64,000 nucleotides of DNA from NCBI RefSeq assembly GCF_026210795.1, contig NC_089429.1, forward strand, positions 3,038,001 to 3,102,000. The letters are read 5' to 3'. Origin of the DNA: Rhizophagus irregularis. Lineage: Eukaryota. Shown in pieces: positions 2,716 through 51,987 of the stretch. The notes beneath the pieces were generated by a model. The model made no database searches and was not told where the DNA came from. It saw nothing but the letters and a program-made list of their open reading frames with translations. Position 1 is the stretch's first letter. Each line of letters begins with the position of its first letter. Both the position numbers and the translations under genes were made by a program.

Positions 2716-3531
2716 TAGAGTTTCGCACAGGTCAGATCAGGTTGGGTTACCTGGTTAACCCAAACTAAAATTTTTTTTCAGATCAGGTCAGGTCGGGTAA
2801 ACCGTTCTGATCCGACCTAACCTATTTGACCTGAAAGTATTCGGGTCACTTCAGGTAACTTGGGTTACCTGAAGTTTTATTATTAAATATTGTAAAAAAA
2901 CGTTTTGTAATGTTTTTTACTATTTGTTTTTATATATAAAATGTCAAAACTATTTATTTCAGCATTTTTCCTTTTGATTTTACATGTAAAAATGCCAAAA
3001 CTGATAGTTTCAGCATTTTTTTCGATTTTACATGTAAAAGCACCAGAATAATTAGTTCTGGCATTTTCTTTTTAATTTTACATGTAAAAATGCTGAAACT
3101 GATAGTTTCAACATTTTTTTCAATTTTACATGTAAAAGCGTCGGAATAATTAGTTCTGGCATTTTTCTTTTTGATTTTACATGTAAAAATGCCAAAACTA
3201 ATAGTTTTGACATTTTTTTCAATTTTACATGTAAAAGTGCCAGAATAATTGGTTCCAGCATTTTTCTTTTAGATTTTACATGTAAAAATGCCAAAACTGA
3301 TAGTTTCAGCATTTTTTTTTTTGATTTTACATGTAAAAACACCGGAATCATTATTAGTTTCGGCGTTTTTAATTTATTTGACCCAAATATATGTCAGGTC
3401 AACAGGACAGATCAGGTACCGACTAGTACTGACCTGACCCATGTCAGGTCATGAATTTGATGACCTGACCTGAATATTTCAGGTCAACCCGTCAGGTCAC
3501 CTGATCTGTCAGATCAGTTTGCAGAGCTCTA
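2716..3531. mobile_element. Non-autonomous hAT-like element with subterminal caggtca/tgacctg motifs
   Basis: Termini are tagagtttcgca / tgcagagctcta. Both ends carry clusters of caggtca/tgacctg. cttactac occurs on both flanks, offset by 4 bp on the right. Confidence 0.55.
2940..3370. repeat. Tandem array of ~50-55-bp units containing ttttacatgtaaaa
   Basis: About 8 copies of the palindromic core ttttacatgtaaaa, each followed by gcc(a)aaactgatagtttcagcatttt-like sequence. This array explains the repetitive ORF at 3052-3351. Confidence 0.9.
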
Positions 3532-5340: not shown

Positions 5341-5724
5341 ATGATCGGCAAAGTTATATGTAAAGTCAAAAACAATATTCAAAATCCACTTTTTTTTCTT
5401 AAGTAAACTTGCAAAGCAGATAAAAATACACTTATATTATGATTTTAAAGTTTCTATTAATCTTTCTTTATAAAAAATTATTCTAATTAAAATTACACCG
5501 AATCACGTGATTTTCCCCGCTTTAGACGACCTCTATAATTGGTAATTTTTTATCGAAATAAAATCGGAATTTTTTCCGTTATCGTGATAAAAATTTGCGA
5601 TTTAATATCGGAATAAATCCGGGTCTCTGATCCTGATGGTAGTAATAATCACATGATTAAAAATTTTTTTTTATCAAGATGAAAGCGATCTTTCAATAAA
5701 CAAAAAAAAAAATTTTTTTAAATA

Positions 5725-8700
5725 ATGATAACATTTATAAGAAATACTAAGTCAAAATGTATTCCGCGACCGAATATTCATATTAATTTAAGAGTTTATT
5801 ATTTGATATCGTTAAAAAGGAATAAAAGTAATAAAAGGTTTGAAACCTTTAGATTACATTTCGGAAATGACCTCACCAAGACTATTAGTGAACTTTCACC
5901 AGCCCAGACTTGGCCCTTCGCAATACATAATTATTCAACGACAGCAGAACATGCTATGTCCACTGTTTCTTCTGAAATAAGCTATCATTCCCCAGAACCG
6001 TTAAGCATAAATAACCCATTAGTAATCCTTCCTCAACCTCGTTATACACCCAGAGAAACGGGAAAAATACTCTTTACAGAACATCTCGCTGTTTTACGAG
6101 CGTGCTTAAAAATAGGAGAAGTAGAACGTGCAAGGCATATTTTAACCAATTTATATAAAAATTCAAGTGATACGAAAAAACATTTAGACATAAAGCTACA
6201 TAATGAGTTTATTGAATCTTATTTAGAAACAAAACCTGTGCCTAGGATCAATGAAGCCTTACAATGGTTTGATAAATTGAATTATTATGGGCTAACTCCT
6301 GATTTAGCGACTTTTGCTATTTTAATAAGAGGTTATTTGAGGTGCGAAATTCCTTTAGTATATTCGTTAATATAGTTTTATTTTGGTTAAGCAAAAAGAT
6401 TAACATTATTTAAATGAAAAATTTTTAAGATTGGATTTAGATTTTCTCGGATCTTCGATGTTAAATATTCTAGTAAAAGAAATTGAAGAATGTGGTTATT
6501 CGTTTGAACAATTAATTGAAAGTAATTTATTATCTGACAAAGAAACAGAAAAAGTATTATATGTAAGTTATATCTAAATGGAAAAGCTACTATATTATTG
6601 GTTTATTCAATGAAACTTTAAGATTTGATGTCAAATATTTATTATAGTTATTACGAGCAGATACAGATTCCAACAAAACATCAAAAAAGCTTATGGAAAA
6701 AATTGAGAATGTTATTGAAAAACAAACACCCGTTATGATAAATGAGTTGAACGTGGATGAGCCAATTTCTACAAAGGTATAATTTAGTTGATATACTTAC
6801 GTTTAAAAAATATAATAAAATATCTTTATTCAAATCTTTCTAGTCGTTTGGAGTAAGGTTGATGAAAAGTGCTCTTTCGGCTATCAAGGAAAGAGATCTA
6901 GGTTCAGTTAAACGTCAAATCAAATTAGAAGAGAATGCATTACTAGCTGCTACGGAGCGTTGGAAGCATGGAAATGAACGAAAAGATAAATTTGTTAATT
7001 TGCAAAAGAATGTTTTGAAAAAATCAATGTGGTCGTGGCACGAAAAGTTAGTTCCTCTAATTCAAGAGGAATTGAAGAGATGTAAAAACAAAGATACCTT
7101 ATTAACTGGTAAGTGCTTGAAATGTTTTTCTTAAAAATTGATCTTAAATTTTGAGTAAACTATGTTTATATTTACACTTATATTCAAAAGATAGAGAACG
7201 CGCAAGTTACGGACCATTTTTGCAATTATTAAGCGCTGAAAAACTTTCGGCTATTACAATATTAGAATTATTGCGTCAAAATGGCGGAGGAGGAATTGGT
7301 GAAGGAGTGAAAACTACACGTGCTGTGCTTTCGATTGGAAAATCGGTTGAGAATGAGTATAATTCAGAACAATTGAAGAAGAGACGAAATCGTTTTGCGG
7401 TACAATATATGTTTATTTTTTGGTACTATATAAATGTGCGATATTCAAGAAGCTTCTTATTCCAATTTACCTATATTATAGTTCAACAAAGATTTAAGCG
7501 TTCATGAACTGTTTGCTTCTGGAAAACTTTTCAATATGACGATTCGGCGAGCAGCAGCCAAATTTGAGTCAAAAGATATGCAAACAAGTTGGAACCCCGA
7601 ATGGCCAATAGCCGTCAGAGCTAAGGTAGTATTTATTTAATTTTCAGTAATTTTACAAAATATATTTAATGTTTACTCTTTATTTCAATTTTAAAGGTTG
7701 GTTCTATCTTAGCTTCCATGTTACTAGAATGTGCAACTATACCAACTACTACTATTAATGAAGAGAAAAACGAGAAAATGTAAATATAATAATAATAATT
7801 TACTATTTTATTTATTCAAATGGTTAAGTTTTAATACGAATTTAGTTCTATGGAAGCACCCGCCTTTTATCATTCGTATATTCAACATAAAGGGAAAAGG
7901 ACGGGAATTATTAAGTTTAATCCACAATTAATTCAATATTTGTCAAAGGAACCTGTCAGAGATAGTATACATCCACAAATGTTACCAATGTTGGTTCACC
8001 CAAGACCTTGGTTAACTTATAATAGCGGTGGATATCTTACATCTCCAAGTATGAATTATTATTATTTATTATTTCTCGTAAGATATTTTTATATCTTTAA
8101 ATTATCGGTTTTAATACTTAAATTTATTTCTATGTAAGCATATGCTATGAGATCAAGAGATTGTCCCGAACAATTGGCTTATCTGCAAAAAGCATCTGAA
8201 GAAGGACATTTGGACCGTGTTTTCGCAGGATTGGATGTTCTAGGATCCACTTGTTGGACAATTAATAAGAAAATATACAAAGTAGTGCTAGAAGCTTGGA
8301 ATAAAGGAGAGGCTTTAGGCAATATACCACCAGCTGAAATAGACTTAAAAATGCCCGATAAACCTGAGAATTTTGAAACTGAAATGTCTGTAAAAGTTAA
8401 GTGGTTTAAAGATTGTAAAGATATTGCTCGTAAAATTTGTAATAATCATTCTGAAAGGTGTACAGCAAATTATAAAGTCGATATTGCTGGTGCTGTAAGT
8501 AACTATAAATATTTTGAATTTATAAATAAACGAAACTTATAATTTTATTTCTTTTATAGTTTTTAAACGAAAATATGTACTTTCCTCACAGTCTTGATTT
8601 CCGAGGTCGTGCATACCCTATACCACCTCTGTTTAATCACTTAGGAAATGATTTGTGTCGAGGTCTATTACTGTTTAAAGACTCCAAACCATTGCGTAAA

Positions 8701-10527
8701 AATGGGTTGACTTGGCTTAAGATTCAAATTGCCAATCTAGCTGGGAATGATAAAGTTTCCTTTGAAGATCGTATAAAATTTACTGAAGACCACTTGGAAG
8801 ATATAAAAGATTCCGCTAAAAACCCTCTCGATGGCAGAGGCTGGTGGATAAAAGCCGAAGATCCTTGGCAATGTTTGGCTGCGTGTTTTGAACTACAAGA
8901 TGCATTAGAGTCTCCAGATCCCGAAAAATACCTCTCACAAATTCCAATACATCAAGATGGCACATGTAATGGATTACAACATTATGCGGCACTTGGTGGT
9001 GATTTGGAAGGAGCAAAACAGGTCGATTTATATCCTTCAGATAAACCATCTGATATATATACTAGCGTAGCTGCGAGAGTAAATGAAATGATAGCAAAAG
9101 ACTTAGCTGCATATTCTGAGCCGTTAGAATCTCTGGAAGATAAAAAACAGAACAATTTATATCCTTTTAATATATATAGTGATATGGATGCGAAAATAAA
9201 TGTAAAAGATTTAGCATTAATTTTGCATGGCAAGATTTCTCGTAAAATTGTCAAACAACCTGTGATGACAAGTGTTTATGGTGTAACTTTTATTGGAGCT
9301 AGGTTACAAATAGAATCACGTCTCAAAGAGAGACAAGATATTCCTCAGGAGAAAATTAGAGATTTATCATTGTATATTACTAGACTTGTATTTGAATGTC
9401 TTGGAGAAATGTTTTATGGTGCTAGGGCTATCCAGGACTGGCTTGTCGAATGTGCTAAGAGAATTTCAAAGAGTGTACCGGCAGAAGTTGTGTTAGATCA
9501 AAATTCTTCCGAATATAGAGATGATGAAAATTTCATTAATCATAATCTAGAAAGTTTACAATACAATGAAAACGGTAATAAAAAGAATACTATAAATGAC
9601 AGTGAAAAAGAGTTATGTGAGAGTAAAAGGAACAACCACGACAATTTGATTAACAAAAAAAGACCTATAGCTAAAATTCCACCTAGTAAGCCAGGTCAAA
9701 ATCAAATGACAACTGTCGTTTGGACTACTCCATTAGACTTGCCAATTGTGCAACCTTATCGTAAATTAAGCAAGAGAGCTGTCAAAACTAATCTTCAAAC
9801 AATTAATATTTCAGATCCGAATCATCCTAGTCCAGTGGACTCTACTAAACAACGACAAGCATTTCCACCCAATTTTATTCATTCTCTCGATGCAACTCAC
9901 ATGTTAATGACTGCACTAGCTTGTAACGAAAAAAATTTAACTTTTGCTTCTGTGCATGATAGTTTTTGGACTCATGCTTGTGATGTGGATGTTATGAATA
10001 AAATAATACGTGATCAATTCATCCAACTTCATGAACAGCCTATCATGGAAAATCTACGAAATGAATTTATTGAGCGTTATAAAGGATATATAATTCCCGT
10101 TAAAATATTAAGAGAGGATCTTGAAAAATTAAAATTGCAAAAGATGGAAGAGACAGAAAAGAATTCGATAACAATAACAGATAATGGATACGAACCAACC
10201 CTTAGCTTAGATGATTTATATAAGATAATACCAAATTCTCAAAAGAACAAGGATTCAAAACTCAGAGAATTTACAAACACTTTAAGTGCTAATAATGCAA
10301 TTGATTTGGACAATGAAGTAGCAAAGTCATTGACTGACATAACAAACATTAATAATATATCAGATGATTTATTCGATGAGGATCATGATATAGATGAGGA
10401 AGCAGAAACAAATAAGAAAAAGAAAAAATATATTCACATTTGGGTGGATTTAACTTTTCCAAAATTGCCAGAAAAAGGTGAATTTAAATTATCCTCAATT
10501 ATGGAAAGTCAATATTTCTTTGATTAA
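5725..10527 (+). CDS. RPO41: Mitochondrial single-subunit (T7-like) RNA polymerase; nuclear multi-exon gene
   Basis: Motifs DFRGRAY, HQDGTCNGLQHY, RKIVKQPVMTSVYG, FPPNFIHSLDATH and SVHDSFW; N-terminal PPR-like region. ORF pieces at 5725-8542 are separated by short GT...AG introns. Exon boundaries are approximate. Confidence 0.95.
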
Positions 10528-13746: not shown

Positions 13747-14673
13747 TTTCCAGTATGTTTTCAGGCATATTAGGATGCAAAATAGGACGGATTTTTTCTT
13801 GTTGTCGCTATGAAAATTTGTTAGTGACGCTCTTAGTGACGCTCTTAGTGACACCCCTTGTATGCTTTTTCAAAGTTTGGGGACGCTCGATTATCTTCCT
13901 TTGTATCTGTCACTATGTCACTAAGAGTCACTAAGAAAAAGTAAAGTTCTAGTAAAAAAATCGAAATTTTTCTATGCTATCCTATGGCTTATATGCGATA
14001 TAGTATGATACATATATGACATATGCGTGATACATATATGCTAAAAAAAATGAAAAAAAGTTAAGGAACTCGGACTTTTCTTAGTGACTCTTAGTGACAT
14101 GGTGACACCCATCTAGAAACCGTCCGAGAGCTCTAAAAATCTGAAATAGCTATAAATTTTGTCACCAAAAGCGTCGCCAAGGGCGTTACCAAGATTTTCT
14201 CGGTGACAGTGACATCTTTTTTCTAGTGACAAACTGTATTATTTTTGTTTACCTCTAAATTACCTACCAATATCTCCGCCGAAGCTATCTTAGCCTGCTT
14301 TTTCCGATGGTACTGTTCCTTTTTACGGTGCTTTCTAGCATGTAGATCGCAAAACCCATATCCAGAATAAGTTCGTTTACCACATTCAATGCAAGGTATA
14401 TATGAGGGAGAATTCCGATGTATTTGGCACCCTTTTGGATGGAAGCACCCCCGATTACAAACTTCTCCGGTCCTGAGAATATATGGACATCGATAAAATG
14501 TCATTTTTGATAACTATGAATAGTTCGATTATGTATCGATTTATATATTTCGGAATTAATTTTCATTTTGAACTTTTTTCTCCCGGAGTATATACTTTCT
14601 CTCGAACTGTATATTTGTTATATAATACCGCGACCCAATCCGAGCTTTCAGAGTTCCTCGACGCGCTCCGCCC
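13747..14673 (+). repeat. Left inverted repeat of element A
   Basis: Reverse complement of 49079-50005, with only a handful of substitutions or indels. Confidence 0.95.
14223..14504 (-). CDS. Small Cys/His-rich zinc-finger-like protein inside the inverted repeat
   Basis: CPYILRTGEVCNRGCFHPKGCQIH...CIECGK...CDLH plus a basic tail. Identical protein at 49247-49528; paralog at 38404-38631. Confidence 0.7.
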   Translation of the reverse strand: MTFYRCPYILRTGEVCNRGCFHPKGCQIHRNSPSYIPCIECGKRTYSGYGFCDLHARKHRKKEQYHRKKQAKIASAEILVGNLEVNKNNTVCH

Positions 14674-17600
14674 TTTTTCACCCAAAGGCTGAAAAAGATA
14701 AAACAGAAGGGGTCCCAGAGGGACCAGGCCAGGTAATCCGCTATTCCGGTGAAAAATACTTGTCGGGCATCCCAACTCGAGATAATATAGTTGCGGAAAA
14801 TGATGAGGGATTAACCGCAATCCTTGAAGACGCTCTATTCAATTGCCAAGAAATACCATTCATGGCCACTGATAATGAAGGATCCAGCCAAAAAATAAAT
14901 GGAAAGTATTGCTATGTATTACGGCTCTACGGTTCTCTCATTAATGGCCAAAAAGCGATAGTAATCCTTTTGGGAATTCAGGTTTTCTTTGACGTTCTTG
15001 TTCCAGACGGAGAGACTCCAGATGAATGTGAAATGAAAATAAGGGATATTCTCTCTGGGGAGGTGGATACTCAAAAAATTGAGCATATTAAAGCTTTCCC
15101 TTTTCGGGGTTATCATACGGAAAAAAAGACATATTTACGAATCTATATGAGTGGTACCGGTAAAGAAAAAACAGCCATTATGGCTGTTCAAGATAATAAT
15201 TACGAAACTGCTTCAGACGATTTATACTCATTCCACCGTAAGGTGGCTCGAAGAATGGAATTCAACTTTCTGGGTGGTCTATGCTGGGCAATTACATGTA
15301 CAAGAAAAGGATTGACCCTCTCTGCCCCCACACATTTTACTTATCTAAAAAATATTTTCAACCCGTTAAAGACCTTACTACGATAACTGATCGTTTCCCT
15401 ATTTCAGCACTCAGAAGGGATCGTACTGTTATCCTCACATGGGATATAGAAACGCAATCACAAGAGTTGGGTGAATTTGCCGAAGTCCTTAATCTGAAAC
15501 AAAATGTCTTTATGATTTGCATGACACTGCATTGGAAAGATGATCCAAAACCGCTAAAGCAAATATGTCTTGTCGACATTGAGACAGAACCAGATCCACG
15601 CTGGACCACAATCGTATGTGGAAACCAAGAAAATCTGCTAAAGGCATTCGCTCTCTGCTGGCGAGCATTTGCCCCTGACATCCAAGTTGGGTTTAACGAT
15701 TCAGACTACGATTGGCGTTTCATTATGGAAAGAGCCTATCATCTCAACATTCTCGAATGGATATGGGAGCGGATGACAGGAAAGTTTGAAACAAAGGAAG
15801 AAATTATAAAGTGGAAATATCGTGGAAAGATAGGAGCGAAATCCGAAAATACTTTTAAGAAGAAAGAAAAGAAAAAGAATAGTGAGGACAGAGATAGTGA
15901 AAATACTCTTCACATTCTTGAGAATGGAGAGGAGGATACGGAAGTCAAAGAATTTCTGGGCGGTCCGATTAAGATCAAAATTTCTGCAGAAGATAATTTC
16001 TTTTCCAGCTTCCTTAAACTGCCAGGATGTGTACCAATTGACGTTAGAGTTTGCCTCAAAAAGCGTTACCCCCGTTCTGAAGTCGAAAAGGAAGGCTCAC
16101 TTAAATTCTTCTTACAAAAATGCGGTCTTGACGCTAAAGTTGACATGCCATACAATAAAATGTGGAAAACCTATTCAGAGGCGAAAAAGAACCCGTCCCC
16201 ATCAACTGCAAGAAAAATGCGGGAAGTAGCATATTACTGTATTATAGATGCACTGTGTTGCCAGGAGCTTTTGGTAAAGCTAAGTCAAATAAATGAATAC
16301 AGAGAAGTCGCTTCTATAGCTTATGTATCTTTATTCGACTCACACTATCGCGCAAATGGAATGAAGGTACGAAACCTTCTAGGCGCTTATGCTTTTAAAC
16401 ATGATATGCTATTTAGCGCAAGGATACCTGAAAAGGTGGAAAAGGGTAAGTATCCAGGCGCATATGTTTTTCCACCTAAAAAAGGTATCGAGACGAAAAG
16501 GCCGGTAACGGGTTTGGATTTTAGATCTTTATATCCAAGCCTTATTATGGCCTATAACCTCTCTCCAGAAAAGTTTATATTTAATCCAGAGGAGGCTGTC
16601 ATTATAAAAAAGAATGGGAACAGTTTACACGAGATTAGCTTTCCATTCAATAAGCGCACTATTCAAGCTTGGTGCGTAAGACATGATAATCGATCTGAGA
16701 AGAAAGGTTTATACCCGACCGTATTAGAGGAATTATTTGCGATGAGACAAGAACTTAAAGCGCAACTTGCCTCATTAGGAAAGAAGAAGGATCAACTTGG
16801 AAAGATAATAAGTTCGGTGAAAGAAAAGGGTAAAAGAATTCCTGAGAAGTTAGATTTAGAATATAAATCTCTTTGCTTCGAATATGACTGCTTGAATTCA
16901 AAGCAGAAAGCTGTCAAGCTATTTATGAATACCTTTTATGGAGAGGCCGGAAACCCATTATCTTCAATCTTTCTCCGTGCATTGGCCGGGGAGGACCACT
17001 TCCGCTGGCAAATACAATATCAAACTTGTTGCAGAATATGTGGAAAAGAAAGGCTTTGGAACCAAATATGGGGATACTGATTCTTTGTATCTTACCTGCC
17101 CAGATAAGTATTTTGAAAAATGCGATGAAGCCTTCTTCTCAGAAAAGAACTATCCAAAGAAGCGTACTGGACCGAAATGGTCAAAATTACTATGGATGTG
17201 ATGAAAAAGTTGCGCGATCAGATAAATGCTTATCTTAGGATAAAAAGTGGGACCTCTTATCTAAAAATGGCTTACGAAGAGGTATTATTTCCCGTCTGCT
17301 TTACTGGCAAAAAGAAGTACTTTGGAGTCGGGCATGAAGATGTAGTAAACTTTAAACCGAAAACCCTTTTCATGAAAGGGATAGAAACTGTAAAGCAAGG
17401 TAAATCCCAGCTTCTCAAATTCATCGGAGAGAAAATTATGAGAGAGGCTATGGATATTAATAATACACGCTCAATTCACGATATTGTTGAAGCTACTCTT
17501 AGAGAAGCCCAGAACAAGGAATGGGATTTCAATGATTTTATCGTAATGGGTACATGGAAGCCTAAGAAAAAAAATCTCTGCAACAATCGCTTTATGGAAC

Positions 17601-17959
17601 GTATGAGGGAGAGAAATAAGAGGATTCCCGATCCCGGCGAACGCTTTAGCTATGTCGTTGTGAAGGGTCCCCGTCTTCGCAATGAGAAAGGCCGGTTAAT
17701 ACCGGTTAGAGTTGGAGATTATATGGAGTATGCGGACATAGCAAAAGAGAAAAACATGGAAATAGATATCAATTATTATTTAGGCACTACGGTTGGAATG
17801 TGCGCACGCTTTATCAATGAGGATGATAGATACCAACCACCAGCTTCACATAAAATTATGCAACTTAAAGATTCGGATGAAAAGGAAAAGCAGACCGACA
17901 AATATTCCCAGGATGAGGCAATAAAATGGCTTAAAAAATATATAAAAGACTTACAATAA
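14630..17959 (+). pseudogene. Family B DNA polymerase (RNA-primed, asfarvirus/NCLDV-like), split by frameshifts
   Basis: ExoI WDIET, ExoII GFNDSDYDW, ExoIII YCIIDA; polymerase motifs [29 protein letters not shown]. Spread over ORFs 14568-15386, 15281-17080, 16938-17201 and 17177-17959; no introns. Confidence 0.9.
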
Positions 17960-18510: not shown

Positions 18511-19557
18511 CTAGGATTTGAGATGATAAATATCTGGCCTATTTCTATATTTTTTGTAGGTGAAGTATCGGTCACTTTCTTTCGGCTTGGCGCTCCACAT
18601 ATTCCATATTTTTTTCCCGACCACGAGCCATATAATTGCAATCAGTAGTAAGGTAAGTATGGAATATATTAACATAGGCGACATTAAGGAGTCCGCAACA
18701 ATAGGAATAGCCGGTACTAGAGGTATTGCTTGGGCTGATGATACCATTTCCGCACCACTTGCAGAAATAATTTGGGATGAATCATTCATAGGCGGGAGTG
18801 GAAGGGATATTTCATTATTTTCCTTCAATTCTAACTGGTCCCCGAAGGACCTATTTTCCTCCCTTAATTTTGATCGCGCTGAATACAAAGCATCTATTTC
18901 CCGTCTAAATATGCTATTTGATGACTCTATTCCCTTTTCCATACATTCTATTGTATATTCTTTCGAATTACGGTCTTCCTTTACTCGTTCCAATTCAAGC
19001 CTAAGAGAATCAATCTCTTTAAGATCGGATGAGCTTATTTGGGCTGGCTCTTCTACCACCCCTCCCGTTGCATCCAAATCATGATATGTACGCTCTAGAT
19101 CTATGTCCTCCAACTTACCTTCCAATTCGCGTATTTTAGTTTCAAGAGAAAGAATCTGGACCTTGTCAGCGGACGAAGCTTTCTGGGCCAAAGTCGCCTT
19201 TCTCTTCAGTGTTTTAATCTCTGATTTGAGCAATTTGATTTCGGCAGTATATTTGGCTTCAAGCTCACGTTGTCTCTCAGAATGAGACTTTCGTTCGGAA
19301 ATAAGTTGGGATCCAACCTTAGTACTGGACGCAATTAACTGGCTAGTTTTATTTACAATATCGGCATAGGATCGTTGAAATTCCTCCTCTCGCTCTGAAT
19401 ACTCTGAATTTTCGGCCTGCAACTTTTCGTTGAAATCAGTAATTTCAGAGTTAAAATCGATAGCAATTTTTAATTTTTTTTCGAGCTCTTGCTCATATGT
19501 ACTACCCAGCCGATGTCCTCTATCTTTTATATCCTTCAATGTATGTACATTGGACAT
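18511..19557 (-). CDS. Coiled-coil protein with a C-terminal transmembrane helix
   Basis: 348-aa ORF with a heptad-rich body and the hydrophobic segment MLIYSILTLLLIAIIWLVV followed by GKK. Confidence 0.7.
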   Translation of the reverse strand: MSNVHTLKDIKDRGHRLGSTYEQELEKKLKIAIDFNSEITDFNEKLQAENSEYSEREEEFQRSYADIVNKTSQLIASSTKVGSQLISERKSHSERQRELEAKYTAEIKLLKSEIKTLKRKATLAQKASSADKVQILSLETKIRELEGKLEDIDLERTYHDLDATGGVVEEPAQISSSDLKEIDSLRLELERVKEDRNSKEYTIECMEKGIESSNSIFRREIDALYSARSKLREENRSFGDQLELKENNEISLPLPPMNDSSQIISASGAEMVSSAQAIPLVPAIPIVADSLMSPMLIYSILTLLLIAIIWLVVGKKIWNMWSAKPKESDRYFTYKKYRNRPDIYHLKS

Positions 19558-19814
19558 AATCTTGGCATGGTTATATAGCAGGAAAAAAAAATATGTTGCA
19601 TTTTTTTTGAGACCACGTAGTCCCGAAATTTCAGAAGCACTTTATTTTTTCTATATATCGATACATATTGGTGGGCATTGAAATATATCAATAATATATT
19701 GAAAATTATTAATACGTATTGAAAAATATTGAAAAATATTGATATGCACATATTGATACGCATTGATATTTATTGAATAGTATTAATATTTTTAGTATAT
19801 ATAATCCAGTAAAG

Positions 19815-20423
19815 ATGGTAGCCCGTATCCATGATACATATTATGATGCTAAGGCAACCCTGTTATCAGAAGCCGACATCAAGGAAATTAGAGAATCCAG
19901 AGGTAGGATACCCAATGCAACACAAAAAATGGCTAGTAAATTTCATATCGGACCTAAGCGTGTTTATGAAATATGGGATAACAAAGAACGCCTTCAGCAA
20001 GGGGTGGTCCCAGAGGGAGTAGTTATTTCATCTTCCTCCGGTCAGCCTGTTTTGGACGAGAATTCCCAGACTGATAAGATAGAACAGACTGAGTCAAATA
20101 TACATGGCCAAAATACATCCCCCTTTGCAGAACTGGAAAAAAATATACGTGATGCTAAGGTTGAGTCTAGCAAATCTACCGATTCAGCTTTAGAAAAAGG
20201 AGGCAGTAAGGCGAAAAAGACTGGAGGAAAGAAATCGAAGTCCAAGTCCACGTTAGTAGAGCTAACACCATCTAGTATTCAGACTCAGCCAATCCAGACT
20301 TCAAAGAAGGATATAAATAATGTAAATTTGGATGCATCATATGAGAAGATGGTCGAAAAAAGCACAAAAATCGTAGATGAAAAAAAGAAGCGTTATACTG
20401 AAAATAACTCGCCTATCCCCTAA
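19815..20423 (+). CDS. Putative HTH DNA-binding protein with a low-complexity tail
   Basis: IKEIRESRG...TQKMASKFHIGPKRVYEIW resembles a helix-turn-helix. Confidence 0.5.
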   Translation: MVARIHDTYYDAKATLLSEADIKEIRESRGRIPNATQKMASKFHIGPKRVYEIWDNKERLQQGVVPEGVVISSSSGQPVLDENSQTDKIEQTESNIHGQNTSPFAELEKNIRDAKVESSKSTDSALEKGGSKAKKTGGKKSKSKSTLVELTPSSIQTQPIQTSKKDINNVNLDASYEKMVEKSTKIVDEKKKRYTENNSPIP

Positions 20424-21314
20424 GAAGACTTTCGCAAAACTCATTGATTTCCGCATTAAATTTGAGAGTAATGAAAAGCTTCTTCTCAAGCTCTTTCACG
20501 CGAATTGCCATATCCTCATAACTCACTTTTTTTTTTAATGTGTCCTCCTCACTCAAGTCCTGCAAGTCATGTGAAATACAGTCCGGAGCTGGCAGATCAT
20601 CACATTCGGGAGTAGTCCTCGCGTAATTCACCTCGAGCTTGTTCTTAACCTTATGCATAGTGACTGGGATAATATAATCTTTTCCATTAAAAGGAATCTT
20701 TAGCTCATTTGTATTCCAGTCCACTGCGCACCCATATTTCTTTAGGAGTTGGTTAGAAAATATTAGCGTTGACTTATGATAGTCTACAACTATAAAATCT
20801 TCATGAATAGGTGAGTCCAGGAGCTAAAGTAATTGGCAAATTGCGGGCGACACCAATAGATTCAATCGGGACAGTAGCTACACCGCTAAGGTCGTGTTTT
20901 TCAGATTCATCTATTTTAGCCTTAACACGAACAACAATATTCTTTGTTATAATTGGAGGCTCTGCTCTGGAGTCAAGAGTCATGGCTGGAATCTTTAAGC
21001 GTTTGATTTTGCACTTCACAGTAGCAACACTCGTTTTCGGCTCCTTCTTCTTGACGAAATCGATCTCCATAGGACCATCTAAAAACTCCTCCTCTTGACT
21101 AGACTCATCCGAAAATAAATCGTTGGAAGATGCCGATGTGTCATTTTGGCCGGAGACCGCGCTCCATAGGAGCCACTATCTGTTCGGACATAACGGGACT
21201 AGAGTCTTTGGAGAAACGTTCAGGAAAAAATAATTTAAGCTCACTTAGGAGGACTTTACGAATAGTTTCATCTAGCGGAATTTCTCTCGACATAGTGCTA
21301 GACTTCTTCTTCAC
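20413..21314 (-). pseudogene. Retropepsin-like aspartyl protease region of a Gag-Pro polyprotein
   Basis: PMEID linker, TLDSRAEPPII (DSG-like active site with G to R), LSGVATVPIESIG flap, and LIFSNQLLKKYGCAVDW after a frameshift near 20805. Confidence 0.75.
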
Positions 21315-23789
21315 TTTTTTTTTGACTTAGATATATGAACATCAAGAATACCATCAGAATCAGAAGAATCAGAAGAACTTGTATCAGAATCGGAACTATC
21401 GCTAGAAGAAGTACTGTCTGAAGAGGAATCTGAATCTGGTTCTATAGCGAGATTGACCTTACCTTTCTTCGACTTCTTGCTTTTCTTTTTCTTCTTTACA
21501 GAGCACTTACGAGAAGTGTGTCCAAATCTACCACACTTGGTACATTTTTTCTTAACGGCACTTTTAACGGCGGATTTGATAGCATTTATTGTGGCACTAT
21601 TTAGTGTCATGCCGGCCATACTGTCAGTAATATCATCCACAGGGTCATAATTATAATCATCTTCAGGTTGCTTATTTGATTTTGTCCTTAGAAGTTCACT
21701 TAAAAATCGTCTAATAATAAGGTCTTCCCCTCTCTTATTGGCCGATTTTTTACTATTATCTAGAGTCTTAGTTCCTCGGAGACAAAGTCTCTTGAAAGGA
21801 TTTAGCTATAGCTTCTTGTAAATCAGCCTTAGTGATATTTTCCTGGCCAGAAGAAGACACCGGTGATAGATTTGGCGCCGATTGTTGTAACGCCTGAATC
21901 CTACTATTTACAATCCTATCAATATCTTCTGTAGTAATATTTTGATGGGAAGGCGCTTTTGATTTTGTCTTAGTGGCCGGCTGGTTATAAATATCTTCGC
22001 CCAAAAGTAAATCATTCCTTGCTGTTTCAATCTCTTCCAGTGTCTCAATCAAATCATCGTTCAAAGGTCTGTTTAAACCCAGTCGTTTCATTTCTAACTT
22101 GTTTTCAGGAGACAAACCACGTAAAAATTGTATTCTTTTTTCACGATCGGATATTCGAGCCCAGCCAGCATATTTATCTATCTTTCTATAGAAATTTCTA
22201 ACTGAATCAGATCCTTGAGTCAAAGTACCAAAGATCAATTCCTGTTGCTCTCGAACAACTGTAGGATAATTCCTTTTAAACCAATAGATGACCTGACTAA
22301 TATTGATATCAGGAAGGACTATATGATTGTTGTTATTTAAAGCTCCATTCGGGGCATTGGTTGCTGTACCAGCATCGACAGGACACCCACCAGCAAGAGA
22401 CCAATCTTCATCTGCGTGAACATTATGTGCTGGGATAACTGTAGCGCCAGTAGCTCCAGCTGGCAATCCTGGTGGTGGAGTACCATCAGGCGCATTAATC
22501 ATGGCGGCCGTTATGTTAGCATTATTTAGGGCCACTACGGCGGCCATATTTGCTAAAGCATTCCCACATCTTACATGATTCAATCGCCATTTTTTACCTT
22601 TAAGCTTATCTTCAGCCCAACGTGATGCCTCATCTGTCAAGCAGGACCAGAATAGCTCTAAAGCTCTCTGTTTACCACCCGCATTAGCAGTAGTGATATT
22701 GGCCGCCGTAAGATAGAGTCTGTAATCTTTTATGAATTCATCTATATCTTCATCCGCTCTACCTGAGAATCTTTTTGGTGCATATCCTGCCATCCTTAAA
22801 TGTTGAAGATTATTTTGTAATGCGAATATTTGTCCTTGCAAATTTAAATTATTCTGGCGTTCTGCTTGGGTCTTATTTTTCCATTTCTCATATCGCTCAT
22901 ATAACCTGTCTCGATTAAATTCTAACAGACCTATATTCCCTCTACTTTGCTGTAAGTGGTGGGCATTTCGCTGATACAATAATTGTAAGGCAAATTTTTC
23001 TTGTATCAGTACACCTATACGGGTTTGCTTTCTTGCTATATTAGCTATCATTCTATTTATCTGGTTTTGAGCATTGGTCCGCAACTGATGGAGATCACCA
23101 ATAACATTAGCCATCCCACCTTCAGCAAGATCTCTTCGCGTAATAGCAAGATCTCGCTCACCTTCTCGCATCATAGCGCCTTCTTTGCTCACGGACTAAA
23201 TCCTGATGCAAATTATTCTCTTTTCGACGTATCTGCCTTGTCGCCCTTTTTATTTGGTCTATTAGAATATCTCTGCTCGTTGTCCTATTATTTAGATAAC
23301 CATCTATAGCATTTGCTAGCTCTGCGATTGCGCCATATTATCATCGGAATTATACAAGTCCGGAGAATTACCTCTTTCCGGTAAATTTTTTCGTGATGAG
23401 ATAGTCCTGATCCGGCATCGCAATTTCTTTACCTGCTCCTCGGAATCTACTAACAGACTCTCTATACTAGAAATATGTTTTTCATTATCACGAATATCCT
23501 TCTTAGCTTGATATAGTTGCTTTTTTAGGCTGGAGATTTCGGATTTTAGCTCTGCTATCTCCTCTTTCGAAGCATTCTCAAGACGTTCTATCTCACCGTT
23601 AAGAGTTTGGATTTCTTGTTCACAATGGACACATTCACGTTCCAGCTCCCTGATCTGCTTTTCATTTTGGCAGTTATTATCAACTTCTGCTTGCAATTCA
23701 CTACGAAGATGGTAGTTCTCCTCCTTCAGCTCAGCTTTATATTCTTCACATGTTCTTCTCTGCCTTGGATGGGGCCTCCGAAATGCCAT
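21311..23789 (-). pseudogene. Gag-like protein: coiled coil, retrotransposon capsid domain, CCHC zinc knuckle
   Basis: PKRFSGRADEDIDEFIKDY...LTDEASRW; MHR-like LTQGSDSVRNFYRKI...QFLRGL; knuckle CTKCGRFGHTSRKC. Pieces at 23316-23789, 21768-23192 and 21311-21640. Confidence 0.8.
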
Positions 23790-23819
23790 TCTTTTTTGTG
23801 ATTATAAAAGAGAATCAGA

Positions 23820-25463
23820 ATGAGCCAACCACAAATCTTGATAGACCCTATTGAGGCTCAGAGAATTGAAAAAAATATCATATTACGTGGAATATATTAT
23901 CGCCCAACTGGCTATCATTCTAATCCCAAATCGTTAAGAGATGCATGTAAAAAAGAGGGGCACCAATTCCGCCTAAGTGAATGTAAAGATTTTTTAGAAA
24001 ATCAAGAGTCATACCAAATTAATAAAACCTCTCCAAAATACATCCCTAGAGTCAGCTATGGGCGAATAACACGTCCCAATTGCGTACATCAGTGCGATAT
24101 ACTATTTCTCACACATGATCGTTATAGAGGTAAAAAATATAAAGCAGTGCTTAATATAATAGACTGTGCCTCCAGATACAAAGCTTCAGTTCCACTTAGA
24201 TCGAAGAAAAGTTCTGAGGTTGCTAAAGCATTTAGGAAAATATATGATGACCCTAGTAATCCTCTTACCTATCCTAAATTACTTCAAACAGATAATGGGC
24301 GAGAATGGATGGGCGAGACTTCTCGACTAATGCAAGAGCACAATGTTATAATTCGAGTGATTGGCCCATATAGTCATAGAGGACTTGCTTTTGTGGAGCG
24401 TTTCAACCAAACACTCTCAAAAATTCTATACAAAATCCAGTATGCTATTGAATCAATAACTTCCGATCCTCAATTAATAAGAGCATGGGTTAGATATATA
24501 CCAGTAGTTATTGATTATCTAAATAATTATCCCACGCGCCTTATTCGAGAACCAGGATCAGAAAAGTGGGGACTCGAGCCAGTGAAAGCCATTGTATTAG
24601 ATCGAGTAGAATCTAAACCATCTACAAAATATAAGCGCCCAGTTGGAAAAGATGAAATGAAATTAAAGAAGGGAGATACTGTCCGCTATCTACTTGCCAA
24701 TGCGGAATGGGAGGGTGGAATGGAAGCAGTGCGTAGAAGCACTGATCCTATATGGTCGCCTTCTATTCATAAAATTCGAAAAGTTGTTGTTATAAAGAAT
24801 GAGCCAGTTTTATATTATCTCGATGGTGAATTTGCACCATCTCGCGGGTTTGTGCGAGAAGAACTTATGTTAATAGCTGATCCAGAAAGGGTTGGTCGTC
24901 CGCCTCAAAGCATATTGTCTGTACATATTGCATATGCTTCCCCTACTAATAGCGAGCTAGATCAAGCGAAGAATTATGCTAAGAAGCGCAATGGTCAATG
25001 TCTAGGAAAGACCGGACGAACAAATGGCCATAGCATATATCTTTGGTCTTGTAAGAATGGTGCGCATCAGTGGGAGTATCCATTAAAATATATTATAAAA
25101 AAATTTGAATGGTGTCCTCTTTGCCATCATACTACCGAAAGAACTGTACGATATATTTTTGAGGATTTGTTAGGCAAGAAATTTCCACCATGTAGGGGTA
25201 AGTTCTTAGATGGGCTACACTTGGATGGATATAATGAGGAATTGCGTCTTGCATTTGAATTCCAGGGTCCTCAACACTATCATCACAATAATTTCTATCA
25301 TCGGGAGAATGAAACTTTAGAAACACAAAAGATTCGTGATCAGAAGAAGCGGGATATATGCAAGAAGCAAAATATATGCCTTATCGAAATTCCATATACC
25401 GCTGATCTCCTATCCTATATCAGGCATACTCTAATCGAGAAAGGGTTCTTACCAAAGCAATAA
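23820..25463 (+). CDS. rve (DDE) integrase fused to a Zn-ribbon and PD-(D/E)xK endonuclease
   Basis: DDE triad in [16 protein letters not shown] and [11 protein letters not shown]3-like [10 protein letters not shown]-terminal WSC..H.W..WCPLC and [22 protein letters not shown]...RDQKK...LIEIPY. Intact 547-aa ORF. Confidence 0.9.
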
Positions 25464-25529
25464 GTCGCATGATTTGGGAAACAATGTTCGGACATTTTAT
25501 AGTATATAGTAATTCAGCGACCCATCACA

Positions 25530-26274
25530 ATGAGAAGAATGGAATATTATATTTATCATCTCGATGAGGTTAAAAGTATGAAGAACACCAATCACCCTGC
25601 AAGTCCTGCATTTCCTTTTCGTCTGTTAATCTGCGGTGGATCTGATAGTGGAAAGACCAATATGATCCTTAATCTTCTTCTTGGTAATAAAATCCAGCGA
25701 TTACATAAGAAAAGAAAAGGGGAAAGATATGTCAAGAATGATGATCTGGTCCTTATCGGGAAGCATATTCAGTGAACCGAAATGGGTATTGGTCAAAAAC
25801 TGCTATAAGATATTTGCAAATGCTCCAGAAGCAACTCGGGAGAATGTTACATTTCGGGCCTTAAAGGCGAACGCTATTCCAGATGTAACTAAGTTTTCCT
25901 CGGACAGAAATACAGTTGTTGTCTTTGAGGACCTTTGCGCTGAATCAAAAAAGATTCAGGATCAGATTGTCCCATATTTCATTAGCGGGCGACATCAAGG
26001 AATATCGAGCATATATGTGAGTCAGAAGTATACGCAAACTCCTAAAATAATCCGTGAAAATATTACGCATTTAGCCCTATGTCGAGGGAGTGGTAGTCGG
26101 GACGATATTAGTCGTATTGTGCACCAATACACAGATAATCCAAAAAAAGCATCCAAAATTATTGACAAACATCTGCGGGATCGGAATTTTGTGGTCTTTG
26201 ATTTTACTAAACCAGTAGATGATCCATTAGCGATTAGACTGGGTTGGGACACGCCTTTGAAATTAGAAGAATAA
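25530..26274 (+). pseudogene. A32/FtsK-HerA-type viral DNA packaging ATPase (one frameshift near 25770)
   Basis: [15 protein letters not shown] (Walker A), VVVFEDL (Walker B), [14 protein letters not shown] (arginine finger/Q motif), [11 protein letters not shown]. Confidence 0.85.
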
Positions 26275-39646: not shown

Positions 39647-41379
39647 TTACACAATATATCCATCTAGCAATTGAGATAATTTGAGCTGTTCCTCCTCGAA
39701 AAGCTTTCTCTTCTTTTTTGTATCCTCCCGGCTTGCCATCCCGAAGTCAATCAGGTATAGGGCACCTTTATCGTTAATTAAGATATTTTCCTCCCGAATG
39801 TCATTGTGGAGGATGCCATGCTTGTGGATCGCTTCCAATCCCTTAATAGCCCTTGTCTTTTGCTGTTCCGTAATTTTTTGGTCGCTCAACGAAGTGCCGA
39901 CAATAGTCATGCCGATAACGAAGCTCATACCTCCTCCATAATATCCATAACAGACCAACTTCGGGATATACTTGCCTTGGATATCAGCGAGTTCCTTGTA
40001 AATCTCTACTTCCTTCTGCATTTCTTTCAGAACATACGATGGGGCCTTCGATAAGTCTACACTCTTCAAAGCAATCGTATCGCCACGAAATTCGCATAGG
40101 AGCGTTTTTCCACTTCGTCCTTCACCTAGTATGCTCTTAAACTTGAAGTCTGCAAAGCTAAACTTTTCCTGGTCTACGTTGGAAGCGCCAAAGGCGGATG
40201 ACGATTGTTGATTCGCGGAGGTGCTGGAAGCCTGATTAGTTAATGAAGAGCTGGATGATGATTTTGAGTTTGATCGAAGAGTTCGTGAATTATTATCCCC
40301 TTGAGCCGGCACTAGTACTTGAGGTTTAGGAGAGTTGGGATTCTCTTTCGCCTGTCGAGTTAGATAAGCATATGCCTTGAGAACTGGTGGAGATTCGGAT
40401 TGTAGTGGAAGGGTTTTTGAGATCCAGAGCTTCGTGTGTTCTCGGCATAGAAACCAGTGATTATCATAGGTGGTAAGAATACCGTATCTAAGTTCGTTTC
40501 CTCCCATATAATTATAGATTTGTTGAATTACATCCTTGCCCTTACTCGTATTATAAAACTCGGGAAATGTCTGTTCACCCATGTCTTCTAAAACATGCTT
40601 TCTTTTTGCCTCAATCACCAAGATCAACGAACCCACGAGATGACAGGTGAAGTCCGGTATGCCAGGAGAAGTAGGTGGACGTTTTGAAAAATTATAATCT
40701 GATCCTATAAGCTTATTTAACATCAAACAAATGTTGATAGATATAGCAACGCGAACATCCTCTTCATTGACTATCTCTATATCTTGGTTAAATTGTGGCC
40801 TCTCGAATATCGGTTGTTGGTCGAAGCGGAATTGATTCACTTTATCGAAAAAGTCGCCCCATAGTTGTACACTTGTCGGCGGGTCACCATTAACCTTTGT
40901 AGTGGTCTTCGATCTAGTACAGTCCGGAGAATATGTTATGGGTGGCGGAATACACGACAACGCCTCTTCCAAGCTGAGAACTGGAAACGAATATGTGTTA
41001 TTATTACTAGGGCAAATGACGAAAAATTAGCCGTTAAGGCGCTTTGCACAGACTATACCAGACACTTACGTGGCAATTTTACAATAACATGGATATGTTC
41101 TTCGAGAGGTGAGTCTGGAAAGTACTTCGAAATTTTTCTTATTGCCAACAGTTCGTCACTGTCCTGGAGTATTAGATTTCTTAATTGATCGTCCTGATCG
41201 CCAGGGATCGACACCTTCCATAGCTTGAGCCTGTCTGCGTCAATACCAGCGAAGTCATTTTGTTTTTTCGCCTTTATAGCGTCCTTGAGGTGGCTAACCA
41301 ACTTTTCCCTATCAATATCTACGGCAAAAGCACTCGCGGTCGTATTTCCTTTGACGAGACATAGTAAAGTGATAGGCAT
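39647..41379 (-). CDS. Crinkler (CRN) effector-like protein: ubiquitin-like header, REase, protein kinase; one intron (41069-40981)
   Basis: ITLLCLVKG...LKLWKV...HIHVIVKLP header. Splicing the GTAAGT...CCAG intron gives P-LLSLEEAL in frame. PDF...VIEAK nuclease motif; kinase motifs GEGRSG, ALK, HNDIREEN, DFG. Confidence 0.9.
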
Positions 41380-41796
41380 GTTTACGGCTTATATAGTATT
41401 TTTTGCGGAATATTATTGGTGCAAACTGGCGTAAGTGAGGACAAGAATAAAAAAGATTTTATTTGGCGAAAAAAATACTGAGGCAGACTATATGTGAGAA
41501 ATTATTCTGTTTCACAAGCCTGCCGTATGATCGGCCAGGTGCAACGATCGCCTAATCACTGCGCCTCCCTAACCGTGAAGACTCTTCTCACTTATCACCT
41601 GACGTTTTTTATATAGGCTAGATAAAAATGTTAGATTTATGCGAAGCGCCTTTACGGCTAGTCCATGGACCGCATCATTACACGTGACCCGTTTCTCATG
41701 TACTGGTAAAATAATACTTTATTTATGAAATAAAAAACGTTACCAAGTCGGCCTACAATACATAAAAATGCGACTATATCGCTATTACATGATGTT

Positions 41797-42156
41797 TTAA
41801 ATAAATACATAAATATTAATTCTATCATTAGGGGGTGGCTCGGGGAAGAGCGTAGAAATCAACTCATGTGGAGGCATTCCTGTTTCGTTTAGACGTTCCC
41901 CACGAACAAATTTTTCAATTTGCTTTTCAATTGATGTAACTCCCTCAGTATCATTGATCTTCCAGAGTAAAAACTCGGCAGGAGGAACCTTTTCAAATAA
42001 ATGTGGCCACCTTTCTCTAATCATAATCCTTAACTGATCAACTGTTTCGTTGGTAGAGATTTTAAGCGTAGTAACACTTCCTTCTGATAAATTTGATCTA
42101 TCACCTATCTCGCAAGGTAAAAGAAGACAATTGAGAGTGATAATAGTATCAGACAT
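41797..42156 (-). CDS. Stand-alone CRN-like ubiquitin-fold header
   Basis: ITLNCLL...ETVDQLRIMIRE...LLWKIN...INIYV parallels the CRN N-terminal domain. Confidence 0.6.
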   Translation of the reverse strand: MSDTIITLNCLLLPCEIGDRSNLSEGSVTTLKISTNETVDQLRIMIRERWPHLFEKVPPAEFLLWKINDTEGVTSIEKQIEKFVRGERLNETGMPPHELISTLFPEPPPNDRINIYVFI

Positions 42157-42663
42157 CTCGCTTTCCTAAATTCATGAACCCATAGTGAGAAGAACTCGCT
42201 CCCATACATACATAACTTCTGGCATATACATACCTTATTTTGCATTAGCTACGCTAGTGAAACTATTTTCTCTGGGAAAGTTTTTTGCGGAAAGTTGGCT
42301 GAACTTCCACATACCTCTACATGCTTTATATATGCCTGGGAAAAAGTTAAGGAGGCATGAGGCGTAATTAGTATTGTCGTATGATGCCAAGAGCTCTATG
42401 AAAGCACATGTAAACGGAATCCTCTTACCTTTTCACATGTAGATCTACCGGAGAGACATAGTTGGTCTTACGCCTGGCGATCTCGGAATTGCGTGTCCCT
42501 CAGCCTTTCATAACATATGCTTTTATCGTCACTATTTACTTTTAGAGTTGGTCCTGTGTTGCATGTAGACCTCCTTTCAAGCGAAGCGCCTGTGAAGCAG
42601 GCCATTTTTCTCATGATTGTTCAGGAAAAAATAAAGAATAAAGGTTAATATGTTTTTTCGATA

Positions 42664-42778
42664 TATATGCAAAAAATATTATGTCGCACAAGACCTGTCT
42701 GGTGATCCACTTATTTTTCTGTCGCACAGGAGTGGCCCAGCAAATTCTTCCGAGCTGAAGATCACCGCTCCGGACTAG
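42664..42778 (+). repeat. Direct repeat copy 1 (~115 bp)
   Basis: Near-identical to 43627-43759 (atgtcgcacaagacctg...gatccacttatttttctgtcgcacaggagtggcccagcaaattcttccgagctgaagatca...ccgctccggactag). Confidence 0.9.
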
Positions 42779-43559
42779 CTAGATTGGTAGTGTACCACCC
42801 CGCCATAGAGGGTCTTGTTAATTCCAGATTAAGAAAAGCAGAAATAAAATTATTATTAGAGAACCCAGATTGGGTCGAAATCTGTACATTGCTAACCTGT
42901 CTAAGACAATCACTAAATGCAGTAATAAAATCAGGCGCATTTTCCTTTTCAGCTTGAATAAGCATTTCTACCATTTTATCAGGATCAAGATCGTGACTAT
43001 AATAACATCCAAATCTTTCGATATACCTTTGACTTTCTGATGACAATCCTTTATGGAATAATTCTCTAAGATGATTTTTACAGAGCTTGATAACATCATT
43101 ACATCTCTTTATCTTCGAGTAATAATTCACTATTGAGTCTTCACCTTGAAGCAATAACCCATACCGGAACTTATCTATCTCATCTGCATTGTCATCTACC
43201 TTAATCTCATTTTTATCAATACCATCCGGCCATATTTCCTCTCGAAGTTCATATGAATAATATGGCAATTCTATTAGGCTCAATATTTGTGGAAGATAAA
43301 TAACATCAGATTGTAAGAGTACATGGAATAATGATGTTGAATTTCTTACACTGGGCAGACTATATACAAATCGTTTAAGAGTTTCCTCCCTCCAATGCCT
43401 GACTGCCTTTGTCTTCCAATAGATTTTGATTTCGCAAAATAGATCTTCCCAGTCTTGCCATTCTGGTATAAATTCAGGATTTCCTTCATTATCCCATTCA
43501 TACCTCGATCCATATTCTTTGATAAATTCATTGTAGCCTTCATCTGCGTCATCTGACAT
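42762..43559 (-). CDS. Protein containing a Gag capsid C-terminal-domain-like segment
   Basis: LLQGEDSIVNYYSKIKRCN...ELFHKGLSSE aligns with Gag LTQGSDSVRNFYRKIDKY...IQFLRGLSPE. Confidence 0.6.
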   Translation of the reverse strand: MSDDADEGYNEFIKEYGSRYEWDNEGNPEFIPEWQDWEDLFCEIKIYWKTKAVRHWREETLKRFVYSLPSVRNSTSLFHVLLQSDVIYLPQILSLIELPYYSYELREEIWPDGIDKNEIKVDDNADEIDKFRYGLLLQGEDSIVNYYSKIKRCNDVIKLCKNHLRELFHKGLSSESQRYIERFGCYYSHDLDPDKMVEMLIQAEKENAPDFITAFSDCLRQVSNVQISTQSGFSNNNFISAFLNLELTRPSMAGWYTTNLASPER

Positions 43560-43626
43560 TTTACTAATAGAGCAATTATACTTAATAAAAAATAAAGTAC
43601 TGGCAGCGTGCATAGCTTCTTTTCAG

Positions 43627-43759
43627 TATATGCAAAAATTAATATGTCGCACAAGACCTGACTGATGATCCACTTATTTTTCTGTCGCACAGGAGTGGCC
43701 CAGCAAATTCTTCCGAGCTGAAGATCATGAGAATCACCTCACGGCCCGCTCCGGACTAG
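43627..43759 (+). repeat. Direct repeat copy 2
   Basis: Matches copy 1, with a short extra insertion after gaagatca. Confidence 0.9.
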
Positions 43760-48900: not shown

Positions 48901-49121
48901 CGGAGTGGTTCATCCCCATCAATGAATTCGTGTAAGGAATGGCCTTCACGTTCTGAGAGAATGGCTTCTATCTCATCCTCATTATCTGCACCGAGGAAAT
49001 GCCTTGGCCTAACACTATCGTCACGAATTTTATATAGGCATTGACCTATATCAGAGGCTTTAAACCCACAATAGAACGGGGCGGGCGCGTCGAGGAACTC
49101 TGAAAGCTCGGATTGGGTCAT
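45986..49121 (-). pseudogene. AEP primase, Zn finger, D5-like SF3 helicase and winged helix, frameshifted
   Basis: AEP motifs HEFI...RPIIDFD, KMSLHI, SLRMLGSSK; CPLCD; helicase QQCGKN, IVMNE, VTSN; wHTH LYQKYLEWC...GKKFSEIGI; acidic tail. Confidence 0.85.
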
Positions 49122-50465: not shown

Positions 50466-50504
50466 TGAGAATAGAGCATAACAAGATAAGTTTAGAAGAC
50501 AGTA

Positions 50505-51962: not shown

Positions 51963-51987
51963 AAAAAATAGAAGAATTAAAGGGTCT

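Follow-up and report, generated by a model that had tools for sequence, protein, structure and literature searches.

In retroviruses of the mouse mammary tumour virus (MMTV) type, the protease and then the polymerase are reached by a double −1 shift, at the gag–pro and at the pro–pol junction. Here we describe a similar arrangement in DNA elements of a fungus. The window analysed is a stretch of 64,000 nucleotides of Rhizophagus irregularis (contig NC_089429.1, positions 3,038,001 to 3,102,000; all coordinates below are positions in this window). It holds two elements, A and B, each with a gag gene that runs on its minus strand towards a protease gene in another frame, and each gag ends in a run of A followed by a stop. 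Judged by its sequence, this junction is a conserved site of recoding; it is present twice, and the elements that carry it are Polinton-like, bear Gag and come from arbuscular mycorrhizal fungi. An earlier model-made reading of the window (the sequence-only reading) had proposed a programmed −1 ribosomal frameshift at this place; the second A-run/stop site at 20523–20536 and the Polinton-like character of both elements go beyond it.

Runs of A are known as slippery sequences. According to the available text of PMC5009743, A_AAA_AAC is among the shiftiest heptamers for mammalian ribosomes, and the available parts of PMC4552401 and PMC4363877 report frameshifting on poly(A) in eukaryotic reporters. 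A PolB element with Matrix, Capsid, NC and Pro genes is already named in the legend of figure 5 of PMC8502044, with which we compare ours by the legend text alone; the sole mention of ‘frameshift’ in the accessible part of that paper concerns a different element. In titles and abstract openings, a scope that leaves out most subscription papers, we found no publication describing this gag–pro frameshift.

The gag–protease junction

How is the junction built in the two elements? Its parts are the following.

21311–23195, minus strand: Gag of element A, with a capsid-like domain, a CCHC knuckle and a Ser/Asp tract; the window copy is split by a surplus base at 21778, and the 5′ start is provisional
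21311–21323, minus strand: site 1 of element A, where Gag closes with A9-G-TGA, read from the sequence and kept in an Illumina contig and in 45 of 50 relatives
20527–21314, minus strand: −1-frame linker of element A (basic tract, LDETIRKVL helix, acidic tract, PMEID) and retropepsin-type protease, with surplus bases at 21157 and 20810
52728–54199, minus strand: Gag of element B, broken by indels in the window
52728–52737, minus strand: site 1 of element B, A6-G-TAG in the window and A9-G-TAG in spanning Illumina contigs
51987–52731, minus strand: −1-frame linker and aspartyl protease of element B (PF13650, E 6e-09)

Re-read from the window, both gag ends are exactly as the sequence-only reading gave them, in letters, coordinates and translation: G TCA AAA AAA AAG TGA at 21326–21311 for Gag A, with the nine A at 21323–21315, and G TCA AAA AAG TAG at 52740–52728 for Gag B. 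Past the junction the −1 frame of element A reads VKKKVKKKSSTMSREIPLDETIRKVLLSEL..., and in the letters of the window the protease lies one further frame off. A TAA in the −1 frame one codon upstream confines the frame change to the A run. The pattern ‘at least nine A, G, stop’ occurs twice on the two strands of the 64-kb window (21311–21323 and 20523–20536), among 53 runs of at least eight A; both occurrences are junctions between open reading frames (ORFs) of element A.

Are the breaks in these frames real? The surplus single bases at 20810, 21157 and 21778 are absent from otherwise identical Illumina contigs of run X2, and also from contigs of run X7. The X2 contigs differ from element A in no other letter across 20585–21455 (a contig of 869 nt) and 21480–22200, and in the 869-nt contig the A9 junction is unchanged. 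With the surplus bases removed, Gag A reads without a break up to the junction, and past it the −1 frame is open through the protease. The extra indel that had been placed near 21150 is thus present in the window, at 21157, but not in the X2 contigs, and the supposedly random indels elsewhere in A look like assembly errors; for the three surplus bases, decay of copy A is rejected on the evidence of the same contigs. Run X2 is possibly the window’s own material, so this is a check for errors rather than independent support. In element B the one TAA that was said to interrupt the −1 frame (52576–52578) is indeed in the window, but it sits within a cluster of small indels (52551–52581) where X2 and X9 contigs give a different reading, and homologous proteins continue across its position (...AVTKNDLLSLLRSADFRKLL...). 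In the spanning contigs of X2 and X18 the B run is A9, at depths of 1610/1610 and 4.9/4.9; the corresponding depths are 33504/55280 in X9 and 75/1678 in X17, where short pieces may not span the run. The A6 of the window is either a minority variant or an under-call, and the frame relation is identical with A9. Runs X18–X20 are of small word share; X19 does not cover site 1 and was excluded from the site-1 evidence.

To what extent is the junction conserved? The relatives are the best 80 of 126 confirmed metagenome stretches, obtained in one scan with a 40-sequence protease alignment. A Gag-end profile without the last three codons, which superseded a zinc-knuckle finder (16 loci only), located the Gag end in 50 of the 80; 29 gave no match, many of these contigs beginning too late, and one had no protease anchor. 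At 45 of the 50 ends a stop lies within six codons of the profile, each directly after nine (41) or ten (4) A. The terminal codons are AAA AAA AAG in 38, AAA AAA AAC AAG in six and AAA AAA AAA in one; 30 junctions stop with TGA and 15 with TAA. Clustering the 45 at 90, 80 and 70% identity gives 33, 21 and 13 groups. The remaining five of the 50 have A7 (L037 and L047), A8, A11 or a junction deletion. What is kept is therefore not A_AAA_AAG, which had been put forward as the invariant unit directly before the stop, but a nine-A run, A_AAA_AAA followed by AAG or AAC; six of the 45 read A AAA AAA AAC AAG TAA. The wider claim of a junction selected at the nucleotide level, with the protease in −1, stands. 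AAA AAA AAG encodes the terminal Lys-Lys-Lys in 38/45 and an internal one of the same genes in 0/84 (AAA AAA AAA occurs internally once), and the codon preceding the run, be it for Ser, Ala, Gly, Glu, Val or Leu, has A as its third base in 21/21 cluster representatives (background 23%).

B-type DNA junctions were seen only via the Illumina contigs. Among 34 distant Gag representatives of at least 380 residues, compared at the protein level only, a loose pattern picks out a Lys-rich tail in 13, and seven end in KKK. The best protein matches are R. irregularis models, 99–100% identical, with further relatives in other Glomeromycota; none was found in viral contig collections.

The PMEID anchor of the protease lies in the −1 frame in 42 of the 45 (40 by profile, two by direct translation), the other three being off by an indel. 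The −1 linker is without any stop in 29, and open linkers span 137–389 nt. Within 40 codons past the junction we counted 10 stops in the −1 frame, 80 in frame 0 and 233 in the +1 frame. The −1 frame is closed 3–22 codons upstream of the run (median 7), so the frame change must fall at or near the run. Inside this overlap 45/50 relatives hold an X_XXY_YYZ heptamer in frame 0 (A_AAA_AAA plus A_AAA_AAG or A_AAA_AAC). Readthrough of the stop codon is ruled out: it would keep frame 0, whereas the protease lies in −1. In 12 sequences of the conserved helix, a motif-selected set, differences fall 290/165/425 on the three codon positions, a third-position bias. The proteases of 28/40 relatives match PF09668 below cut-off. 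In copy A the protease motif (20966–20971, minus strand) is D-S-R in the window and in X2, in place of the D-S-G or D-S-C usual in relatives and in X7 and X19 contigs; the protease of this copy may therefore be inactive.

Might the protease instead have a start of its own, through reinitiation or on a separate transcript, the A run being incidental? In copy A an ATG does lie ten codons into the −1 frame, a Met is available in PMEID, and at the second site some variants show an ATGA overlap. But no ATG precedes the helix in 27 of the 32 linkers open to it, GTA variants give no start, and the codon bias of the run is left unexplained. We consider separate translation extremely improbable. We conclude that the A9–stop junction is, with high probability, a site of programmed recoding.

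A second A run beyond the protease

What happens at the other end of the protease? Two further features of element A lie there.

20523–20536, minus strand: site 2; the window has A10-G-TGA here, and ORF3 follows in frame
20413–20526, minus strand: ORF3, about 40 residues, predicted helical (VSYEDMAIRVKELEKKL...)

The protease ORF of the relatives usually closes at a run of 8–10 A with a stop within two codons. Counted over 58 loci (the 80 minus seven without anchor, 13 without the ORF3 motif and two spurious), ORF3 stands at offset −1 in 45, at 0 in 10, eight of these without an intervening stop, and at +1 in three; six of the 45 −1 cases have A8. The run is A10 in the window and in X2 and X17 contigs, and A9 in an X7 contig. 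ORF3 is about 30–53 residues long, and is conserved: its 27 distinct sequences differ by codon position as 1279/1538/3254, again with a third-position bias. The protease of element B ends with no extension of this kind. In one relative (L023, about 1140–1173) the −1 continuation past the A run and stop of the protease reads as a C2H2 zinc-finger-like peptide in place of ORF3.

If run lengths vary, could the switch be made in the DNA? The polymerase of the element would then change the run length, and in-frame copies would supply protease to the others. Length variants exist at site 1 (A7 in two, A8 in one and A11 in one of 50), the offset is 0 in 10/58 at site 2, and for the window’s own copy A9 and A10 differ between runs. 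Yet the out-of-frame state dominates every lineage (45/50), and frame-breaking variants at site 1 are as frequent as in-frame ones, as expected of homopolymer mutation or assembly noise. Such DNA-level switching is in our judgement improbable.

Alternative splicing from the GT in AAG-TRA would likewise remove the stop and join Gag to the protease. G and T meet at 44/45 junctions, several eukaryotic gene models appear spliced here (P0016, P0017, P0039, P0095), and both B (GTAGGT) and site 2 (GTGAGT) resemble splice donors. The donor consensus has G at position +5, where the A-family site 1 has A in 44/45. An intron, moreover, would not hold a frame open across 137–389 nt, the gene models bridge the gap in many different ways, contigs guessed as RNA have no joint at either junction, and the ATGA and TTGA variants of site 2 lack the GT. 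Splicing is thus very improbable, and for this multi-copy family the numerous public gene models that bridge the junction with inconsistent predicted introns are probably wrong.

Proposed slippage by the ribosome or by RNA polymerase

Which machine would change frame at the A run? We lean, with some reserve, towards −1 slippage of the ribosome, which would make a Gag–protease fusion; this is favoured because the run stands in X_XXY_YYZ register, one lineage has A_AAA_AAC, and site 2 tolerates A8. Most ribosomes would stop and release Gag, while a minority would slip back one base on the run and continue into Gag–protease. The two Lys-tRNAs on A_AAA_AAA, with a second chance on A_AAA_AAG or A_AAA_AAC, would re-pair perfectly after a one-base slip. 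Site 2 would add the tail of about 40 residues to some fusions, giving the series Gag, Gag-Pro and Gag-Pro-ORF3. The role of the protease would be to mature the Gag shell that a Polinton-like DNA element would build and, by analogy with retroviruses, a set Gag:protease ratio may be under selection.

A retroviral signal had been expected here. The X_XXY_YYZ heptamer and the −1 protease are present; when stretches of 60 and 90 nt downstream of the stop were folded for A, B and 20 representatives, neither a conserved 3′ stimulator nor a shared fold emerged, pseudoknots and long-range pairing being outside the model. Mean folding z over these 22 junctions was −0.19 (60 nt) and −0.03 (90 nt), with 3/22 below −2 each; controls gave −0.13 and −0.24, with 0 and 1 of 22 below −2. 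The window’s own downstream segments had z of −0.63 to 0.79. With no 3′ stimulator found, this is not the textbook retroviral signal. Slow decoding of iterated AAA, the basic nascent peptide and the adjacent stop might stand in for one.

The missing stimulator also leaves room for transcriptional slippage, in which RNA polymerase would add one A on the T9 template and the A10 mRNAs would encode Gag-Pro in one frame. No RNA structure is needed for this, the invariant nine A matches bacterial slippage on nine A/T (PMC5009743, available text), and yeast Pol II indels climb exponentially with tract length in the accessible part of PMC5650487. A weak hint comes from one X17 contig of 168 nt, which has A10 at site 1 of A and no other differing letter, at depth 10.5 of 21.1, whereas the DNA-like runs X2 and X7 have no such A insertion at 5% or more. 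But X17 is a different sample whose RNA status is only guessed, and the same contig could come from a strain variant or from slippage in the library. No one-base variant appears at the B run among the variants listed, A8 is tolerated at site 2, and the mean Pol II insertion rate given in that part of PMC5650487 is 7.4e-7 per base. We regard transcriptional slippage as rather unlikely.

Several points weigh against the preferred reading, ribosomal slippage at a programmed junction. Nine A is the classic length for polymerase slippage, and the X17 contig, of guessed RNA status, has A10 at site 1. Strong reporter effects were seen from 12 A upward (PMC4552401, available text), and slippage unaided by the stimulator for which we searched may be inefficient. 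Stops, one to three in each, are held by 13/42 of the −1 linkers, and offset 0 occurs at site 2 in 10/58 relatives. Gag and protease in a single frame, the arrangement that the sequence-only reading had named as speaking against it, is found in L037 and L047, both with A7; these are only 2/50, and 45/50 keep the run and the stop. Finally, relatives share descent, so that the counts are not independent events, and we claim no p-value.

The host elements and known systems

What kind of element carries these junctions? The features that bear on this are listed here.

13747–14676, no strand: left terminal inverted repeat of element A, 99–100% complementary to 49075–50005
49075–50005, no strand: right terminal inverted repeat of element A
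14520–17959, plus strand: family B DNA polymerase (PolB) of element A (PF00136, PF03104), which the window shows broken into three and the relative L026 as a single 1217-residue ORF
23808–26274, plus strand: rve integrase and A32-like ATPase of element A (PF00665, PF04665), in the same order beside gag in the relatives L024, L053 and L071
46714–49274, minus strand: D5-like helicase region of element A (PF19263, weak PF03288)
50366–64000, no strand: element B, with inverted ends at 50366–50465 and 63898–64000

The inverted repeats of element A (13747–50005) are about 930 nt long and 36 kb apart; the visible inverted ends of B are about 100 nt. Element B carries DUF5679, an integrase-like ORF (assigned by weak similarity to that of A plus a chromodomain), gag-pro, an A32 ATPase (PF04665), PolB and a helicase. 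The polymerase of A matches PF00136 and PF03104 (with weak POL3_N) and not the protein-primed model, and that of B gives only a weak match to PF03175 (E 9e-4). Four longer relatives (L024, L026, L053 and L071) share the order A32, integrase, gag, pro, two conserved ORFs, PolB. A capsid-like Gag with an aspartic protease would fit a long terminal repeat (LTR) retrotransposon (Metaviridae/Ty3), which we rejected for want of reverse transcriptase (RT) and LTRs: there was no Pfam match to RT among 55 window ORFs and no YxDD-like motif in a set of 441 proteins, and past pro the relatives run on into the non-RT genes that the window also has; the repeat families listed include no long terminal direct repeats around gag-pro, the boundaries being inverted repeats. 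Jelly-roll capsid and cysteine protease gave no match (Pfam, 55 ORFs; PHROGs, 31 ORFs, coiled-coil only), though remote homologues could escape. No target-site duplication is obvious at the repeat ends of A, whose exact ends are provisional. On this gene content, the hosts are Polinton-like elements bounded by terminal inverted repeats (TIRs), with PolB, integrase and A32 ATPase, in which the searches above found no RT.

What of Gag itself? Gag A has weak, below-cut-off Pfam matches to PF03732 and PF00098, and Gag B is 32% identical to it over 271 residues. A single-sequence model (pLDDT 41) was set aside for an alignment-based one of the core (pLDDT 75), for which all listed Foldseek matches are PEG10 CA-like or lentiviral CA, at E 0.018 or weaker and none reaching 0.001, with TM to target of 0.77–0.81 for PEG10. 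Against sequences of solved structures the Gag alignment gave two weak matches (E 0.21 and 0.68). The predicted capsid fold is thus a weak match, drawn from Foldseek ranks at E values above 0.001. At 42664–43727, direct repeats of 101 nt (96%), spaced 963 nt, surround a 286-residue ORF, a stretch of which resembles the C-terminal capsid domain of Gag (E 9e-6, 4e-7).

Other features of the window are as follows. On the minus strand of element A, 39647–42165 holds two ORFs with Crinkler N-terminal domains and a kinase ORF, apparently cargo, and 18511–19641 a 376-residue ORF, coiled-coil-like with a hydrophobic C-terminal segment and no family match, which is conserved in many relatives downstream of gag-pro. 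Upstream of element A, 5722–10527 (plus strand) is a host gene for a phage-type RNA polymerase (PF00940), probably the mitochondrial one. Tandem repeat arrays occur at 55645–55776, 57389–57607, 61281–61414 and 2938–3375, with periods of 11, 53, 69 and 99 nt.

Taken together, it is possible, if somewhat doubtful, that Polinton-like elements of Glomeromycota have swapped the jelly-roll capsid for a retroviral Gag–protease and use a Gag shell to package or move their DNA, with ratios set by two structure-free A9–stop switches. If true, this would be a natural programmed use, in a eukaryote, of ribosomes sliding on poly(A) or of slippage by a nuclear polymerase, through a signal as compact as 13 nt. 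Coding poly(A) is usually deemed harmful in eukaryotes; here it appears selected, stands in tandem and is the sole entry found to an essential-looking domain, with no stimulator detected. A gag–protease module under selection for regulated expression would bear on whether mycorrhizal Polintons form Gag-based particles.

How does the locus compare with described systems? It resembles the retroviral gag–pro frameshift and departs from the canonical class in its 3′ stimulator. As in the MMTV type, Gag is followed by a retropepsin in −1, an A-rich X_XXY_YYZ by a stop just after, and the protease by a second −1 junction. Unlike there, no conserved 3′ pseudoknot or hairpin was found (pseudoknots being outside the model), the run is of nine A with an adjacent stop, and the third ORF encodes about 40 residues and not Pol, the host element having a DNA polymerase and no RT that we could find.

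With Mavericks/Polintons, known in Rhizophagus and Glomus too (PMC11296320, PMC8647823 and 10.64898/2026.06.19.733378, in the parts available), the hosts share long TIRs, PolB, rve integrase, A32 ATPase and a D5-like helicase; they differ in having no match to jelly-roll capsid or cysteine protease and, in A, a polymerase of PF00136/PF03104, and the available texts on these elements do not describe such a gag–pro frameshift. In bacterial dnaX and IS recoding, as the accessible text of PMC5009743 describes it (E. coli A_AAA_AAG, ribosomal; Thermus thermophilus nine T, transcriptional), the two motifs belong to different systems; the junction here contains A_AAA_AAG as well as a run of nine A, but its host is a eukaryote, and the slip would lengthen the product past a stop. 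Sliding on poly(A) Lys tracts (PMC4363877, PMC4552401 and PMC9207662, in their available parts) has in common with the junction iterated AAA and a loss of frame without a structural stimulator. There, however, the tract is selected against or attenuating, whereas here selection appears to favour the run, and a conserved domain lies beyond it.

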